Origin: a virus
Lineage: Duplodnaviria; Heunggongvirae; Uroviricota; Caudoviricetes
Virus record (IMG/VR): IMGVR_UViG_2563366944_000005
DNA: 23,570 nt
Strand: one strand, 5' to 3'
Part shown: positions 12,935-20,026 of the stretch, piece by piece
Layout of the letters: every line of letters starts with the position of its first letter
Position numbering within the stretch: position 1 is the stretch's first letter
Translations under genes and position numbers: made by a program
Notes under the pieces: model-generated
Told to the model about the DNA's origin: nothing
The model's input: only the letters and a program-made list of their open reading frames with translations
Database searches by the model: none

Positions 12935-13222
12935 TCAGAGAATGCGTTTGACCGCCTCGCTATATACTTCCGAGCGTTCTCTTTTCCCAACAGAAATCAC
13001 GAAAACGACAACTTTCTCGTCTATAACCTGGTATACAAGGCGATAGCCTGAAGACCGGAGCTTAATCTTGTAACAATCAGGCATACCACGGAGCTTGTTT
13101 GCTTCAATCCGGGGTGACTCAAGTACTTCAACCAGCTTCTTTTTCAACTGTTCACGTACCGTCGAGCCCAGCTTTCGCCATTCCTTTAGTGCCCGCTCGT
13201 CAAAATCCAGAAAATACGCCAT
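12935..13222 (-). CDS. relE: RelE mRNA interferase toxin (95 aa)
   Basis: Track ORF MAYFLDFDERALKEWRKLGSTVREQLKKKLVEVLESPRIEANKLRGMPDCYKIKLRSSGYRLVYQVIDEKVVVFVISVGKRERSEVY...; ATGA overlap with relB stop. Confidence 0.9.
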   Translation of the reverse strand: MAYFLDFDERALKEWRKLGSTVREQLKKKLVEVLESPRIEANKLRGMPDCYKIKLRSSGYRLVYQVIDEKVVVFVISVGKRERSEVYSEAVKRIL

Positions 13223-13461
13223 CAGAGTTCATCCAGCGTCACACGTACTGGCTTAGGATTACGAAGCCGTTCTTTCACTATCTCCACAAGTTCAGCATCT
13301 TCATCACTCAGGAGTGTCTGTTTGAACGGCAAGCGTTCATTGTCAGCGATATACTCGAGCATGAGACGAAGCGCTTCAGAAGGAGTTACACCCATTTTTT
13401 CAAGCGCGGCGTAAGAACGCGCTTTAAGTTCATCGTCAATACGCAGGTTAATGCTACCCAT
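13222..13461 (-). CDS. relB: RelB antitoxin (79 aa)
   Basis: Track ORF MGSINLRIDDELKARSYAALEKMGVTPSEALRLMLEYIADNERLPFKQTLLSDEDAELVEIVKERLRNPKPVRVTLDEL. Confidence 0.9.
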   Translation of the reverse strand: MGSINLRIDDELKARSYAALEKMGVTPSEALRLMLEYIADNERLPFKQTLLSDEDAELVEIVKERLRNPKPVRVTLDEL

Positions 13462-13469
13462 GTCTTACA

Positions 13470-13500
13470 CCTCTTGTAATTACAAATGTCATTACAAGTA
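13470..13500 (-). promoter_or_regulatory. relBE promoter/operator (relO-like dyad)
   Basis: cTTGTAATTACAAatgtcATTACAAg: palindromic TGTAATTACA plus a repeated TTACAA half-site immediately upstream of relB. Confidence 0.6.
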
Positions 13501-13791
13501 TCGCACTACAACATGCTTAGGGCAAGTCACGAAGGAAGTCAGAAAGTAGTCGTAAGAACGGTGATCACTGTCCGCTTTGTGCCAGGAGCAGCCATTGCTA
13601 AGTCCATCCTGTATTGTGCAGGTCAGCTCGTTTTTAAAGAGTCCGGCCATCATCTTACTGGTACAGACACCATATACTTTGTGACGGTCAGGCTACATAT
13701 GCACAACTCAACTTATTCATCTATTTTTTGCTTTAGCATGTCAGTGTTGCTTTCTCGTCGGCGGGTGAGCGGTGACCTGACCTGTCGATAA
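13486..13791 (+). CDS. ydfV: ydfV-like ORF (101 aa), doubtful coding status
   Basis: Track ORF; no SD; Cys- and Ser-rich, odd composition; overlaps the relB promoter. Confidence 0.3.
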   Translation: MSLQVSHYNMLRASHEGSQKVVVRTVITVRFVPGAAIAKSILYCAGQLVFKESGHHLTGTDTIYFVTVRLHMHNSTYSSIFCFSMSVLLSRRRVSGDLTCR

Positions 13792-13943
13792 AGGAACGTA
13801 ACACGTTTTATGCAACACCCGCATGCGGCAGAAAATTATTGCCGAACGTTTACCCCTGTCAACAAGCTTTACTTTCTGAGGCGCGCCAGCCCGCGAGGAA
13901 AACAATCTGAACATCAAACAATTAATGACACAAGAAATACGAT

Positions 13944-13970
13944 TAAAGATTTTTTTGTGCATGCCGATAG
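13944..13970 (+). promoter_or_regulatory. sigma-28 (FliA) type promoter upstream of flxA
   Basis: TAAAGATT, 11 nt, GCCGATAG compared with the recalled consensus TAAAGTTT-N11-GCCGATAA; about 24 nt before the flxA SD GGAGA. Confidence 0.6.
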
Positions 13971-13993
13971 TGCTTTTTTAAAAGGAGAAATCT

Positions 13994-14326
13994 ATGTCTG
14001 TCACAATTCAGGGAAATACCTCAACCGTTATTTCAAACAACTCCGCCCCGGAAGGAACATCAGAAATAGCCAAAATCACAAGACAAATTCAGGTGCTGAC
14101 TGAAAAGCTTGGGAAAATCTCATCGGAAGAGGGGATGACGACACAGCAGAAAAAAGAAATGGCTGCATTGGTACAGAAGCAAATTGAAAGCCTCTGGGCT
14201 CAACTGGAGCAGTTGTTAAGGCAGCAGGCAGAGAAAAAGAATGAAGACGCGACAGTTCAGCCTGATAAAAAAGAAGAGAAAAAAGACGATACAAATACCG
14301 CTGGCACCATTGATATTTACGTCTAA
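13994..14326 (+). CDS. flxA: FlxA (110 aa)
   Basis: Track ORF; ATG with AAGGAGA SD; coiled-coil, Lys/Glu/Gln-rich. Confidence 0.85.
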   Translation: MSVTIQGNTSTVISNNSAPEGTSEIAKITRQIQVLTEKLGKISSEEGMTTQQKKEMAALVQKQIESLWAQLEQLLRQQAEKKNEDATVQPDKKEEKKDDTNTAGTIDIYV

Positions 14327-14337
14327 GTGACAGCCGT

Positions 14338-14368
14338 ATTGTGGCCCTCATCGGGCCACTTTTCGCCA
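14338..14368 (+). terminator. rho-independent terminator after flxA
   Basis: GTGGCCC-tcatc-GGGCCAC followed by TTTT. Confidence 0.6.
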
Positions 14369-14674
14369 TCAGCCTTTTCTTTAAAGACATATTATCTTTG
14401 TATCATTTCTGATAGTTAACATTACAAGATATAAGTAATGGACGCACTCCCAATTAGTCTATTTAAATCGCCACGAGTTTAACTGACAACCCATGATCAA
14501 TTATGAATTGCAACTATTTCTGTAGTCACTTTTGTGGGGACAGTCCACAAAACTGCCAACTTCCGCTTCTTGCTCTTAGCGGACATTAGCATAGGCTATT
14601 TACCATAACGCCTCATTACGCGCACCGCCCAGACTGACTCAGCGCGTTTCTGGCATATCCCCGGTAAAACAAGT

Positions 14675-16130
14675 AACAAACCACCCGAAAATGAACACCA
14701 GAAACGCGACTTAAGAATCTACCCTATGAATGGATATGCACTCAACCGAATCGATCTTGGTTTCAATCTTTTTTATCGGGATCAGGCTTCTTTTTAGGTA
14801 ACTTCGGGGGCTTAACTTGCTGATGACTTTGCGTTCGGCGCGTAAGCCAGGGATGGTCAGCTTTAGGTTTAACATAGTATTTTGAGCGTAAATCAATACG
14901 GGCATTATCCACTCGTTCATGGACACTCTTTTCATCATCCAGTGGTATAGGCTCCGGGCCATCAACATACTTTTCCCAGCCCAGCGCTTTCCCGTCATAC
15001 AGAACGTTAATTTCACCGTCAAAGTTCTCGCATACAGTAACAACCGAATGCCTAAGTCGATATCCCCGGCCCTCACTGCGTACCTGAAACGCACTGCTTT
15101 TGTACTGGAAAGTGAGATTTTTAGACAGAACGCGCTTCGCCTGTAGGCTGAAGATATAACCCAGTTCCTCTTCAGAATGGTGCACATCAAGATGAGCATT
15201 ATCAGTAGTACGAGGCGACGTAGCGAACCGGTTGTTATAGGCTTCAATAAAGGTCGGCAACCATGCATTTGCTGTTTCAATATCACTGATATTCTGAAGC
15301 CGCATTTCTTTGACCAGCCTGTCCTGTAGTGTCTGATTGGCGCGCTCTACCCGCCCTTTTGCCTGCGGGCTGTTGGCATGGATTGGCTCGATGCCCAGTG
15401 TCTTTATCGCACGAGTGAACTGGGTCAGCTCACCTTCCCGCTCTGGGTTATTTACCCTGAATATACTGTGTCTATCAGAGTAGAGAGCGAGCGGTACGCC
15501 ATGATCATTAAGGTAACCCCGGAGGGTTTCCATGTAAGCCCGGGTTGTTTCAGCAGGCACAAAACGCAACGCCATCAACGCACTGGTGGCATCATCAATG
15601 AAAACGATCAGTGTACATCTGGGGCCTCGATTTTCAAACCAGTCATGAGGTGAGCCATCAATCTGGATCAGTTCACCGTAAGATGGTCGTCGCATGCGGC
15701 GTTGATATATACGGGCAATTTTACGACGGCGTTCACGCCATAACCCCTCTTCTATCATCCACTTTCTGAGAGTTTCAACGGATAAAGATAAACCGTGTAT
15801 CTCGCGCAATTTTTCGCACGCAAACGTAGGTCCAAAATCAGCGTAACGGCCTTTGAGGAGTGAAATTACTGTTGCTCTGAATTCAGTAGAAAAGGAATTA
15901 TTAGGACGCTTTCCACGTCGGTGGGAAACCAGAGCAGAAGGCCCTTCATTTCTATACCGTTGCACCAGACGTTTAACCTGCCGAATAGAAATGCCAATGC
16001 GTGCCGCAGCTTGTTCCTGAATAATCTGAAGTCGGTGGAGTTCCTTATGACTCATCGTAACAGTCTCTTTGATCATGAAAAATCCCCCAGAGAATTGTCT
16101 GGGGACATTTTAGAATGGTTCAAAGGGGAC
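14675..16130 (-). mobile_element. insertion-sequence-like element (about 1.45 kb) carrying the transposase; ends approximate
   Basis: Imperfect inverted repeats: 14679-14693 aaccacccgaaaatg versus 16106-16120 cattttagaatggtt (CATTTTnGnnTGGTT core, roughly 75% over about 20 bp). Confidence 0.45.
14763..16076 (-). CDS. DDE transposase with integrase (rve-type) catalytic core and N-terminal HTH (437 aa)
   Basis: Track ORF; ATG with GGGGG SD; candidate D/D/E residues in LIVFIDDATS, ALYSDRHSIF, GRVERANQTL; HTH IGISIRQVKRLVQRY; IS family not assigned. Confidence 0.85.
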   Translation of the reverse strand: MIKETVTMSHKELHRLQIIQEQAAARIGISIRQVKRLVQRYRNEGPSALVSHRRGKRPNNSFSTEFRATVISLLKGRYADFGPTFACEKLREIHGLSLSVETLRKWMIEEGLWRERRRKIARIYQRRMRRPSYGELIQIDGSPHDWFENRGPRCTLIVFIDDATSALMALRFVPAETTRAYMETLRGYLNDHGVPLALYSDRHSIFRVNNPEREGELTQFTRAIKTLGIEPIHANSPQAKGRVERANQTLQDRLVKEMRLQNISDIETANAWLPTFIEAYNNRFATSPRTTDNAHLDVHHSEEELGYIFSLQAKRVLSKNLTFQYKSSAFQVRSEGRGYRLRHSVVTVCENFDGEINVLYDGKALGWEKYVDGPEPIPLDDEKSVHERVDNARIDLRSKYYVKPKADHPWLTRRTQSHQQVKPPKLPKKKPDPDKKD

Positions 16131-16410
16131 ATTACAGCTTGGTGTTAACAATAGCCTGCTTCTCCGTGCCTTTCGGCACGTAAGAGGCTAACCTACATGT
16201 GTCTAGCATGAAATTGGCCTCAGATTAATGTTAAGCGTCTTGCAGGACGCGTAATGTTAACTGGGGCTTTTCTCTATCTGCCGTTGGTGTCCATGCCCGA
16301 GGCAGATAGCCTCAAGCACCCGCAGTCATTCTACTTAACTAAGATTTCCCCGCAAACCGTTTTTGTCCAGCACAGTAAATATCCAACTAAACCAATGGAG
16401 TTCGCTGTAT

Positions 16411-16590
16411 TTACCGCCAGTATTCAATGCACATGACCGCCATGAACACCCCTAAAAAAAGGGCATTTATATATCCAAATATTAATATCAAAACATCAAC
16501 TTTTTCCATATACCTTGCTGTGAAGATGATGGGCATACATGATGCGAACAACCAGAACGCAACAAACAAAAACTGCAATGCGTTTTTCAT
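16411..16590 (-). CDS. small hydrophobic protein (59 aa, two predicted transmembrane helices)
   Basis: Track ORF 16411..16629 trimmed to the ATG at 16590 preceded by AGGAGG at 5 nt; MKNALQFLFVAFWLFASCMPIIF...VLILIFGYINALFLGVFMAVMCI. Confidence 0.5.
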   Translation of the reverse strand: MKNALQFLFVAFWLFASCMPIIFTARYMEKVDVLILIFGYINALFLGVFMAVMCIEYWR

Positions 16591-16844
16591 TATTCCTCCT
16601 ACAATCAATGTGCAATTACATTTAAACACACCTCAATTTGGCCGGACATATAAATATCTAAACCAGAAAAAATCACTTACATAGCGTTACAAACTCTTTA
16701 GTCTAAAGGTTCATCGTAAAACATTCCCCATACTTATCAGTCCGTTCCGCGCCAGGTAGCTCATTGCCTTATCTGGCAACCTGTAATCAGGTTTCCGCTT
16801 TTTCAGTTGGCTGGTCGTTTAACCGACATAGTTAATCCATTAAT

Positions 16845-17132
16845 CTAGTTGCCGGATGTTGGTGGATTTTCGCGTTTTAGTTGTTCATAAAAGTGCACAG
16901 CTTTAACCAGTTCTTCTGATGTAACGGGGACTGGTGAGGCAGTGAATAAGGCCTGAATTTGATAGTTCGGCCTGTCGTTACAATCCTCTTTTTTCGGTAC
17001 ATATTTCCAGTCACCAGACCACTACTTCCCCTGAAAGTCCGTAACGCCTTTTTTTACGTAGCGATATCGCCATGCCACTGGTTTTGCTTGCCCCGCCGTT
17101 TCATGCCCTTCCTGATAATTAATCTCGCTCAT
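16845..17132 (-). pseudogene. ORF interrupted by an in-frame amber codon (36 codons, TAG, 58 codons)
   Basis: Hand translation MSEINYQEGHETAGQAKPVAWRYRYVKKGVTDFQGK*WSGDWKYVPKKEDCNDRPNYQIQALFTASPVPVTSEELVKAVHFYEQLKRENPPTSGN*; TAG at about 17022-17024. Confidence 0.3.
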
Positions 17133-17742
17133 TCATCGCCCCACTCATCACAATATGCTTCGACCGGAGTTTTTCCCGCTTCATAGTCATCACGCTAGGA
17201 TTCGACATCAGCAGCACTTCCACCGCGTAACTCACCATAGTCCATTAATAGTTCATCCCGCTCTTCAAAACTGATGTTATATTTAGCTGAACAAAAATCA
17301 GCCACTTTGTGCTTCCTCATCGTCTTTTATTTCGTGGTATGAGTAATTGCAGTAGTTAAAGAAAATTTCTTATGCTCCGTCATGAATTTCCTCAGGTGTT
17401 GCGTCATCGTCCACTTCGAATACATCCTCAAAATCTCCACCAGCTATTCCCGTTTCAATAATAATTTTGAACTTTCGCATTTCACTACCGCCCTTTCGGG
17501 CGGCCTCCTGATGTTCTGAGGGTGCAGAAATCCATCCGGTTAAGGATTAAATTTTATTTACAGAACTGAATTTAATTATTCAGATATACGTATCTGTAGC
17601 CTTACGAATCTACTCACTGGATGCCTCTTTCATAAAAATAATCCAGTGGGTTTTATCGTTTTTTCCCTGTTCGTTGACAGATAACAGGTTTTCTGTCTGT
17701 CAGTGCCAGAATCTGGCTTACCGGTATTTGCGTTTCATTCCA

Positions 17743-18099
17743 TTAAAAAATCAGAACGCCGTGCGGCCTCAACACCCGAAAGGCTTCTTTAAATCTCTGT
17801 CGCGAATCATCACGCCAGGCATCTTTATTCAGCCGTCCATATTTCTTTCCCATCCAGGCGTTATCACCAACACTCTCAAGATGCGGAGGGTCTAATACAA
17901 CCATCGAAAAAGATGCGTCTGCAAATGATAATGCACGAAAATCTGCGATAATGTCAGGGCTGATAATCAAGCGTCTCCCATTGCGTAATGTGTATCCTTC
18001 TTTTCTGATATCGCTGAATATCGCCCGTTCGTCAGACTTATCGAACCAGAACATGCGGCTGCCACAGCACATATCAAGAATGGTTGCCGGTGCACTCAC
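17743..18099 (-). CDS. DNA methyltransferase-like N-terminal fragment (118 aa), probably truncated
   Basis: Track ORF with GTG start overlapping the upstream stop (GTGA); SAM-binding-like ILDMCCGS and DPPH motif; ends right after RVLRPHGVLIF with no continuation in any frame. Confidence 0.4.
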   Translation of the reverse strand: MSAPATILDMCCGSRMFWFDKSDERAIFSDIRKEGYTLRNGRRLIISPDIIADFRALSFADASFSMVVLDPPHLESVGDNAWMGKKYGRLNKDAWRDDSRQRFKEAFRVLRPHGVLIF

Positions 18100-18518
18100 T
18101 GCGCCACGTCCTGAAAATTACCCTGATAGAAAGCCAGTATGCGCTGCATAACTTCGCTCTTCCGGCACTCGCGACAGATTATGTTTAGGCGACTGTCGTA
18201 GCGACGTATTTCTCCGTCAGGTGATGACCAGATAAGGTCCGGATCAACCACAGCAGGTTTCTTCACCTTTGCCCTCGAGAGTTTTTTGCGGGCGTTTTGC
18301 CAGTCCTTACGCGCCTGTTCAGAGGGGAATAACCCGTAGCCGGAGTTGTATACATCGCCACTGGCTACCAGCTCTCTGGCAAGAACGCTCATCAGATATC
18401 TAGTCGCACCTGTTTTAGCTTCCAGTTGCCGTAACGTCTCACGGCCGCTCTGGCGCACGAGTTCCACCACCTGCCATTTAATTTTTTCCCGCTCTTCTTG
18501 TGTAAAAACTTTTGCCAC
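18096..18518 (-). CDS. hypothetical protein (140 aa), possible winged-helix DNA-binding protein
   Basis: Track ORF; GTG start preceded by AGGGGG; lies 40 nt downstream of the O-like gene. Confidence 0.55.
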   Translation of the reverse strand: MAKVFTQEEREKIKWQVVELVRQSGRETLRQLEAKTGATRYLMSVLARELVASGDVYNSGYGLFPSEQARKDWQNARKKLSRAKVKKPAVVDPDLIWSSPDGEIRRYDSRLNIICRECRKSEVMQRILAFYQGNFQDVAQ

Positions 18519-18558
18519 AAGTCCCCCTTAAAATTACCTCATGACCTGAAATCAACAC

Positions 18559-19524
18559 TTATCCTCTGAAACCAGGCGGAATTTCTGTATCCGGTTCAGA
18601 AATATGATTAACACAACGCTGTACAGGTGAACGTCCCAGGCGGATGACCAGTTCGTCCCATTTTTCGCGGAGCTTTGACGGGCTCATGATGTTTTTTACC
18701 CAGAATGGATCTCGCTGAACCCGACCAAACATTTCGCAAATTTGTCTGTGGCTTCTGCCATCCAGCATCCGCATTGTGCGCACGTCATTGGCCCAGGCAG
18801 TCCAGTTAGGCTCTTTTGGTCGCATGATCTCGCCATCATCACTGGCTGCCTGTTCGTAGAGACCCACGATCCGCCCCCAGATCCACTGCGCACACGCCAA
18901 ATCCTCCCTGCTACCCCACTGGCGTTTTTTCGCACTAAACACAACCGCGTCGGAGTTCCGGGTTAAAAAATCCTGTTCAGTCGTCTGCGGGTCCGGTTGC
19001 GAAGCTTCCGGACGAAAAGTGTTTTTATTCTCTGTAGTAATCTCTGTTGTATTCTCTGTAAGATCATCAGGCCATTTTGACCCGATGACATTGGGTCGTT
19101 TTGAACCAATGGAGCGTTTCATTTTGACCTCTTCCATCGTGTCATTTTGACCTGATGGAGCGGCGCATTTTGAACCGATGGATTCGCTCAATTTGCCACC
19201 ATCTAAAAGCTCGCTCCCATAGTTGATCGTGTAGAAATTGGTCATATCGCGCTTTGATTTATTGAGCTTTTCACAACGCAAAAGCCCCAGCGTTTTCAGA
19301 CTTGCAAACGCGCGCTTTAACGTTGACTCTGACCAGAATGGGAACTGTTCCAGCCATTGTTCCGTTGTGTTATAAATCCAGCGAACACCATCACATTCCA
19401 TGCCGGAGTTGGTATCTCTCAACCAGTAGTGCAGTTGTTGCAAAACAATGGCTTCGTTTAAGCCAATTTTCATTGCCAGCTGCGTGTTTATAACCAGTGG
19501 GCGTTCAGCAAAAAGAAGGCTCAT
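18559..19524 (-). CDS. replication initiator / replisome organizer (O-like); about 321 aa from the first ATG
   Basis: Track ORF 18559..19578 begins at TTG; N-terminal DNA-binding-like region; central repeated IGSK motifs encoded by iterons. Confidence 0.75.
   Translation of the reverse strand: MSLLFAERPLVINTQLAMKIGLNEAIVLQQLHYWLRDTNSGMECDGVRWIYNTTEQWLEQFPFWSESTLKRAFASLKTLGLLRCEKLNKSKRDMTNFYTINYGSELLDGGKLSESIGSKCAAPSGQNDTMEEVKMKRSIGSKRPNVIGSKWPDDLTENTTEITTENKNTFRPEASQPDPQTTEQDFLTRNSDAVVFSAKKRQWGSREDLACAQWIWGRIVGLYEQAASDDGEIMRPKEPNWTAWANDVRTMRMLDGRSHRQICEMFGRVQRDPFWVKNIMSPSKLREKWDELVIRLGRSPVQRCVNHISEPDTEIPPGFRG
19070..19195. repeat. origin-like iteron array inside the O-like gene (5 direct repeats at about 23-24 bp spacing)
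   Basis: cATTTTGAcCCGATGa / gTTTTGAaCCAATGGA / cATTTTGAcCtcttcc / cATTTTGAcCTGATGGA / cATTTTGAaCCGATGGA starting near 19073, 19097, 19120, 19143, 19167; AT-rich TCTCTGT-repeat stretch at 19030-19060. Confidence 0.65.
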
Positions 19525-20026
19525 AATTCCATCCAGCTTTTTGTTGGTATTGCTGTCGATACGCAAGTTTGAAAGCAATTGCTTTTTCTATAAGTTCGTC
19601 AGTTTCACGATCCACTACGGCAGGATCAGCAAAAAGCAGTCCGGACTCCACCACATCGCCATATTCTTTGTTTAACCCGGCGATCATGCACGTGATGCTT
19701 TTTCCGTCAGTAATTTCACGATACAACCTGAAATCATTAATCCGGATAGCCTCCATAATTGCAGGCACTAGCGCCGTGAACTTTTCACGCTTATCCCTGG
19801 TGTCGATAGCCTTCCAGCGTTCAAATATCTTCACTCGATTAACGCCAAGCGCTCGCTGATCAATCGCGCCACCTTCATATGTGACACGCTGAACATCGAT
19901 GTTCGGGCGCTCTTTCAAAGCCCAGAATGCTTCAGTGATTAATATCGTCGCCTGCTCCTGTGTCATTCCTGGTCGACATATCCAGGCATCCAGAGCCTCA
20001 CGAGCCTGTTCAGGAGTGATTTTCAT
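19505..20026 (-). CDS. hypothetical regulatory protein in the cII position (173 aa); possibly YdaT-family
   Basis: Track ORF; ATG start; overlaps dicC 3' end by 17 nt and the O-like gene start. Confidence 0.6.
   Translation of the reverse strand: MKITPEQAREALDAWICRPGMTQEQATILITEAFWALKERPNIDVQRVTYEGGAIDQRALGVNRVKIFERWKAIDTRDKREKFTALVPAIMEAIRINDFRLYREITDGKSITCMIAGLNKEYGDVVESGLLFADPAVVDRETDELIEKAIAFKLAYRQQYQQKAGWNYEPSFC

Follow-up and report, generated by a model that had tools for sequence, protein, structure and literature searches.

The minus-strand reading frame that is interrupted by an in-frame TAG codon in this region is very probably a non-functional pseudogene, the remnant of a small lambdoid-phage gene (PHROG 660) within a Qin-type prophage, and is the fourth and last in a row of genes inactivated by nonsense codons. 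The analysis established the lesions of this copy and their distribution among related loci, and showed that the sequence offers no route to a full-length product. The term window is used here for the whole 23,570-base stretch of DNA that was analyzed.

Extent and identity of the pseudogene

Translation of the minus strand from 17132 to 16845 gave 36 codons, a TAG (17024..17022), 58 codons and a second TAG (16847..16845). The amino acid sequence reads MSEINYQEGHETAGQAKPVAWRYRYVKKGVTDFQGK up to the first stop and WSGDWKYV...ENPPTSGN between the first stop and the second. The original prediction had described precisely this arrangement of 36 and 58 codons and had proposed that the gene is inactivated, an interpretation that agrees with the existence of homologs spanning the stop (the 171-aa WP_001289995.1 and the 141-aa P0034). 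The end that it assigned to the gene at 16845 had to be moved. The true stop is a TGA at 16713..16711, and the gene runs to 16711. Table 1 lists the coordinates of the pseudogene, its lesions and its disrupted neighbors.

When both stops and the frameshift were repaired, the translation aligned without gaps along 141 residues to the intact 141-aa P0034 (77% identity, E 7e-83), and the reading frame is therefore not a chance ORF. Judged by this similarity, the window copy is what remains of a PHROG 660 allele of the 141-aa type. It resembles the family in sequence and lacks the intact ORF, which is broken by two in-frame TAGs and a frameshift. No reading frame in the window sequence unites the N- and C-terminal modules, and the longest possible product is predicted to be a 36-residue peptide, itself not conserved.

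The locus is an ordinary pseudogene that is already annotated in RefSeq. The equivalent of 17132..16711 is labeled a pseudogene ("hypothetical protein; frameshifted; internal stop") in the E. coli chromosome NZ_OZ547117.1 (L006) and in three other E. coli genomes, i.e., in every one that was fetched. The RefSeq (PGAP) pseudogenes AC9VVF_RS05035 (NZ_OZ547117.1) and J6O42_RS10965 (NZ_CP081711.1) are identical to the window copy in locus, extent and lesions, with 99.5-100% identity over a 651-base query. The annotation does not itemize the lesions or their order, but otherwise differs in nothing of substance from the description given here.

Table 1. Coordinates of the pseudogene, of the changes found in it and of the disrupted genes upstream.
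Feature	Position	Strand	Remarks
Whole pseudogene	16711..17132	-	ATG 17132..17130; original stop TGA 16713..16711; same extent as RefSeq pseudogene
A-run within first 36 codons	17049..17055	-	Prone to slippage in sister loci
First nonsense codon, TAG at codon 37	17022..17024	-	Replaces sense codon
90-bp in-frame gap relative to 171-aa alleles	junction 16860..16861	-	Natural length variant, not a lesion
Second nonsense codon, TAG (TAG96)	16845..16847	-	CAG (Gln) in all aligned sense alleles
4-bp deletion site	16814/16813	-	TGG[C/T] absent between 16814 and 16813 (nucleotide alignment)
58-codon gene (PHROG 519), dead	17129..17305	-	GTG for ATG start; TGG to TAG at codon 37 (17197..17195)
DUF7167 gene, dead	17298..17480	-	AAA to TAA at codon 37 (17372..17370)
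Class I SAM-dependent methyltransferase gene, dead	17628..18099	-	AAA to TAA at codon 119 (17745..17743); frameshift near 17666

Lesions in the window copy

The TAG at codon 37 had been suspected of replacing a sense codon, and alignment to intact homologs confirmed it. Codon 37 is CCG in 47 intact alleles, ATG in 17, CAG in 10 and CTG in 3. It is TGG in the alleles whose flanks are identical to those of the window (L081, L082 and L091, the last from Shigella dysenteriae), and TGG versus TAG is the sole difference at codon 37 between these nearest sense alleles and the window. Since the identical-flank alleles carry TGG, a G to A transition converting TGG to TAG is the most likely event. Across the intact PHROG 660 alleles (L004 and L007-L088) at least five sense codons occur at this site, each with G as its last base, and the adjacent residues are almost fixed. 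Such variability could mean that the position is hypervariable and on the surface, or that it is a mutational hotspot.

A single nonsense mutation, as originally envisaged, does not account for the damage. The TAG at 16847..16845 is also a nonsense mutation, its context being AACTAGATT in the window and AATCAGGTT in the sense alleles, and a 4-bp deletion follows it. Three-frame translation located the conserved C-terminal module, SQLKKRKPDYRLPDKAMSYLARNGLISMGNVLR, only in a shifted frame, which ends at the TGA that is normal for the family. The module is out of frame because of the 4-bp deletion. Readthrough of both TAGs would reach an out-of-frame TGA after 13 codons, leaving the C-terminal module out. 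In addition, of the 22 C-terminal positions found invariant in 16 diverse homologs, 6 are changed in the window, W133S and L137P among them, and a G74E substitution is also present.

Two other features are of a different nature. The 90-bp gap relative to the 171-aa alleles cannot be counted as a lesion because an intact 141-aa allele (P0034, L090) has the same gap boundaries. The A-run within the first 36 codons consists of seven A in the window because a GTG codon became GTA.

The intact PHROG 660 family

In strain OkiPb01697 (L004) the same position is occupied by an intact 171-aa ORF, WP_001289995.1, which matches phrog_660 over residues 2-171 (E 6e-72). Both WP_001289995.1 and P0034 align across the two TAG sites. 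They belong to the same family as the window copy and, like it, follow the DUF7167 and 58-aa genes and precede hok. The window copy differs from them in having two nonsense codons, a frameshift and changes at positions that are otherwise invariant. The uninterrupted 171-aa ORF was found in 69 loci (IMG/VR and other loci fetched with the intact protein), and a protein search returned 1,567 relatives, with intact forms of 171, 141 and 132 aa.

The intact protein is built of three modules (N-terminal, middle and C-terminal), the first of which covers about residues 1-64 and is followed by a proline-rich linker. An exhaustive phmmer search collected 443 relatives, in which the three modules are shuffled across hundreds of phage proteins. 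In some relatives the N-terminal or the middle module is coupled to Ead/Ea22-like (PF13935) or DUF551 (PF04448) modules, which are known from modular proteins of lambdoid phages. This is sharing of modules and not membership, as the intact 171-aa protein falls below every Pfam threshold. The only Pfam match to this protein was a sub-threshold one to AphA_like; NCBIfam returned nothing, and PHROGs returned only families of unknown function. An AlphaFold2 model built from a 16-sequence alignment was poor (pLDDT 54, pTM 0.30); in it, residues 20-62 seem to form a small beta-domain, with helices after it. A Foldseek comparison of that model with BFVD and PDB gave no match with a TM above 0.3 on the query. 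With a poor model and no fold match, no function can be inferred from structure.

Related loci that share the codon-37 TAG

IMG/VR was scanned for loci with window-type flanks around codon 37, allowing either TAG or TGG at this codon. The scan identified 114 loci, of which 111 carry TAG and three carry TGG. A separate scan of genome contigs returned three loci only. Each of the five independent E. coli records that were fetched, whether genome or phage (L001, L002, L003, L005 and L006), also had the TAG, and a Shigella flexneri locus (L089) combines it with a 1-bp deletion.

The A-run that follows the GT[A/G] codon is A6, A7 or A8 across the 114 loci. The A7 and A8 forms are frameshifts and occur in 60 TAG loci and in the three TGG loci, all three of the latter being A8. 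Since even the TGG loci are frameshifted, none of the 114 loci is intact. In many TAG loci a 55-bp deletion takes out the region of the second TAG, and about 50 loci have the combination seen in the window, TAG96 plus the 4-bp deletion. The pattern, one old common lesion beneath several younger and mutually exclusive ones, is a signature of decay. In Shigella dysenteriae, a form with two additional nucleotides in the A-run has a 152-aa ORF (P0030) that restarts at an out-of-frame ATG and regains the original frame.

We infer the order of events as follows. A 141-aa-type allele would first have gained the nonsense mutation at codon 37, most likely by a change from TGG to TAG. The frame would no longer have been maintained from then on, and the lineage would have gathered further lesions. 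In the copy present in the window, the later hits would be the CAG to TAG change at 16847..16845, the 4-bp deletion at 16814|16813 and the substitutions at positions that never vary in the family. The decay that followed was presumably neutral.

Polymorphism in the TAG lineage was counted after filtering out indel-bearing sequences. The 36 changes comprise 25 nonsynonymous and 11 synonymous ones, compared with a neutral expectation of about 3.7:1. Within codons 1-36 the numbers were 12 and 4, respectively, which is about neutral. These numbers are small; together with the six altered C-terminal residues that are otherwise invariant, they are suggestive of relaxed constraint within the TAG lineage. 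Values of pN/pS between alleles were discarded as evidence of decay, since that of the window against intact alleles (about 0.19) fails to set it apart from pairs of intact alleles (0.2-0.4). As the value is no higher than among intact alleles, most of the divergence of the window allele must be older than its inactivation.

Disrupted genes upstream of the pseudogene

The segment had also been described as decaying, and the genes upstream of the pseudogene support this description: the methyltransferase, DUF7167 and 58-codon genes all have nonsense codons. The methyltransferase gene had been called truncated. It is indeed broken, but the damage consists of a nonsense codon and a later frameshift and not of a truncating deletion. 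Its ORF spans 18099..17743, and homology persists to about 17628. In a tblastn search, the 156-aa methyltransferase of Erwinia phage vB_EhrS_49 passed the stop (70% identity, E 5e-66) and continued in another frame. RefSeq lists the 118-aa methyltransferase as an intact protein; the lesions with respect to the 156-aa phage homolog make it a pseudogene. For the DUF7167 gene, the Pfam match was obtained on an intact homolog, and RefSeq lists the window-type gene as a partial pseudogene. The lesions of the 58-codon gene were read against the intact copies in L002, L004 and L091, and its stop overlaps the start of the PHROG 660 pseudogene as ATGA.

Among IMG/VR loci with window-type flanks, the stop was present in 44 of 44 for the DUF7167 gene (TAA) and in 42 of 42 for the 58-codon gene (TAG). 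For the methyltransferase gene it was present in 43 of 47 loci with exact flanks, and the four sense (AAA) copies are 86-89% divergent alleles from other contexts. Exact-flank scans of IMG/VR for an intact ancestor thus recovered only stop-bearing copies of the DUF7167 and 58-codon genes and no near-identical intact ancestor. Since the stops recur across the exact-flank loci, the window haplotype amounts to a single clonal block of four dead genes. In a lineage of 94% identity (L002), the stop is found only in the third of the small genes, i.e., the PHROG 660 gene.

In all, five nonsense codons are found in four adjacent genes within about 1.4 kb (17745..16845). The first premature stop lies at codon 37 in three consecutive genes (TAA 17372..17370, TAG 17197..17195 and TAG 17024..17022), with spacings of 175 and 173 nt, and all three are on one clonal haplotype. 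This three-fold coincidence would be expected about once in 8,500 if first-stop positions were random, a figure calculated post hoc, and no mechanism for it was found. Five nonsense codons, three of them at codon 37, are more orderly than simple neutral decay predicts.

The Qin-type prophage

The window could be aligned without gaps to the E. coli chromosome NZ_OZ547117.1 (99.46% identity). The chromosomal stretch is flanked by rspAB and ynfA-E, which is the Qin site, and its gene set includes dicB, ydfABC, dicA, dicC, the replication protein O gene, relBE, hokD, rem, ydfU, ydfT, cspB/F/I and the lysis genes. A search of the window against Rfam found DicF and two cspA-type leaders. Gene content, gene order and chromosomal site all identify the window as a Qin-type lambdoid cryptic prophage of E. 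coli. The pseudogene lies in the early-right part of this prophage, between the replication genes and the hok/nin region.

The Qin prophage of E. coli K-12 MG1655 has dicB-dicF-ydfABC-dicA-dicC on one side and ydfW-flxA-ydfV-relBE-hokD-rem-ydfU-ydfT on the other, as the window does, but everything between ydfX, which adjoins dicC, and ydfW is deleted. K-12 consequently has no copy of the pseudogene. Comparison of the K-12 MG1655 region 1643000-1650500 (L208) with 14912..20026 of the window showed that ydfX runs straight into ydfW. The window keeps a ydaT-like gene, replication gene O, DUF977, the methyltransferase gene, three small genes, a sok remnant and most of a transposase gene, all of which are missing in K-12. 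The 651-base query spanning the locus matched 1,913 of 5,426 complete E. coli genomes, with at least 80% of the query covered in 1,204. The window haplotype is very common, the identity reaching 99% or above in 504 records.

Alternative explanations

The loss of the gene might have been selected instead of neutral, either because the products were harmful or because nonsense polarity (Rho-dependent termination) silenced downstream prophage genes, which would make the locus an adaptive pseudogene. The concentration of five nonsense codons in about 1.4 kb of a haplotype whose divergence otherwise looks selected (pN/pS about 0.2) would fit this explanation, as would the high frequency of the haplotype and the invariable presence of the DUF7167 and 58-codon stops at exact flanks. 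However, the haplotype forms a single clonal block that may owe its frequency to vertical inheritance of Qin, and the search for a near-identical intact ancestor, against which an excess of nonsense mutations would show, recovered none. We therefore regard selected inactivation as unlikely. The regular placement of the stops raises the related idea that the nonsense codons are not independent neutral accidents but products of selected silencing (by polarity on toxic or lytic genes, or by removal of harmful products) or of a position-dependent mutational process, and we hold this to be quite improbable.

It is very unlikely that the region contains two separate small genes, one encoding a 36-aa peptide and another one downstream. 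The 36-codon ORF does have an ATG, which overlaps the upstream stop as ATGA. Nevertheless, the intact homologs are single ORFs of 132-171 aa that run across the site, the opposite of what the original prediction would have expected of two genuinely separate genes or of a stop spanned by no homolog. There is no in-frame ATG after the TAG, and no usable in-frame GTG or TTG start was found; the only such codon lies 17 codons upstream of the second TAG. In more than half of the sister loci, slippage of the A-run disrupts even the 36-codon ORF, whose polymorphism is close to neutral (12 nonsynonymous to 4 synonymous).

A functional gene that depends on an amber suppressor, an option raised at the outset, or on programmed UAG readthrough is highly improbable, even though both in-frame stops are TAG and a supE-type suppressor inserts Gln, the residue of the intact protein at the second site and of some alleles at the first. 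Reading through both TAGs leads to the TGA located 13 codons further on, with the C-terminal module out of frame due to the 4-bp deletion, so that the frameshift effectively refutes this reading. Moreover, an ARAGORN search of the 23.6-kb window detected no tRNA gene. Frameshifts precede the TAG in more than half of the TAG loci, and downstream of it invariant residues are mutated. That the gene is intact and the TAG an error of sequencing or assembly can be dismissed, since the same TAG occurs in hundreds of independent assemblies, in all fetched examples and in 111 of the 114 IMG/VR loci, and the remaining lesions are also common to other records.

Significance and other features of the region

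The biological weight of a non-functional PHROG 660 pseudogene is small; it is a further example of a decayed accessory gene in a prophage that is grounded. The gene model is nonetheless corrected, with the end of the gene placed at 16711, the second TAG recognized as a lesion and the 90-bp gap as an allelic difference. Because the segment 18099..16711 consists of four dead genes in a row, they should be left out of any count of functional cargo. The lesions are layered, with TAG37 first and differing secondary hits after it, and provide a handy lineage marker for Qin-type prophages of E. coli and Shigella.

Elsewhere in the window, a 3,274-bp insertion (12877..16150, within 12862..16165) is bounded at both sides by a perfect 15-nt direct repeat, ATAGCCTGCTTCTCC. 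Its cargo comprises an ISNCY-family transposase gene, flxA, ydfV and relBE. The hokD coding sequence, which starts at 12863, is separated by the insertion from a hok leader and a sok-like RNA (Rfam sok, 16150..16321, minus strand); in the related prophages L002-L004 the hok/sok locus is uninterrupted. Integration of relBE into the hokD locus has already been described (PMC6379469). The transposase gene is an uninterrupted 437-aa ORF in the window (14763..16076, minus strand), and in a near-identical RefSeq record it is listed as a partial pseudogene followed by 'ydfW'. As the ydfW CDS corresponds to the last 49 codons plus the stop of the 437-aa ORF, YdfW appears to be a C-terminal remnant of the transposase. 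An unannotated 59-codon ORF (16411..16590, minus strand) is located between the pseudogene and the sok element, after a GGAGG motif. Its predicted peptide (MKNALQFLFVAFWLFASCMPIIFTARYMEKVDVLILIFGYINALFLGVFMAVMCIEYWR) is very hydrophobic, and L002 and L003 show DNA-level conservation of this region. The ORF may be the gene of a small membrane protein.
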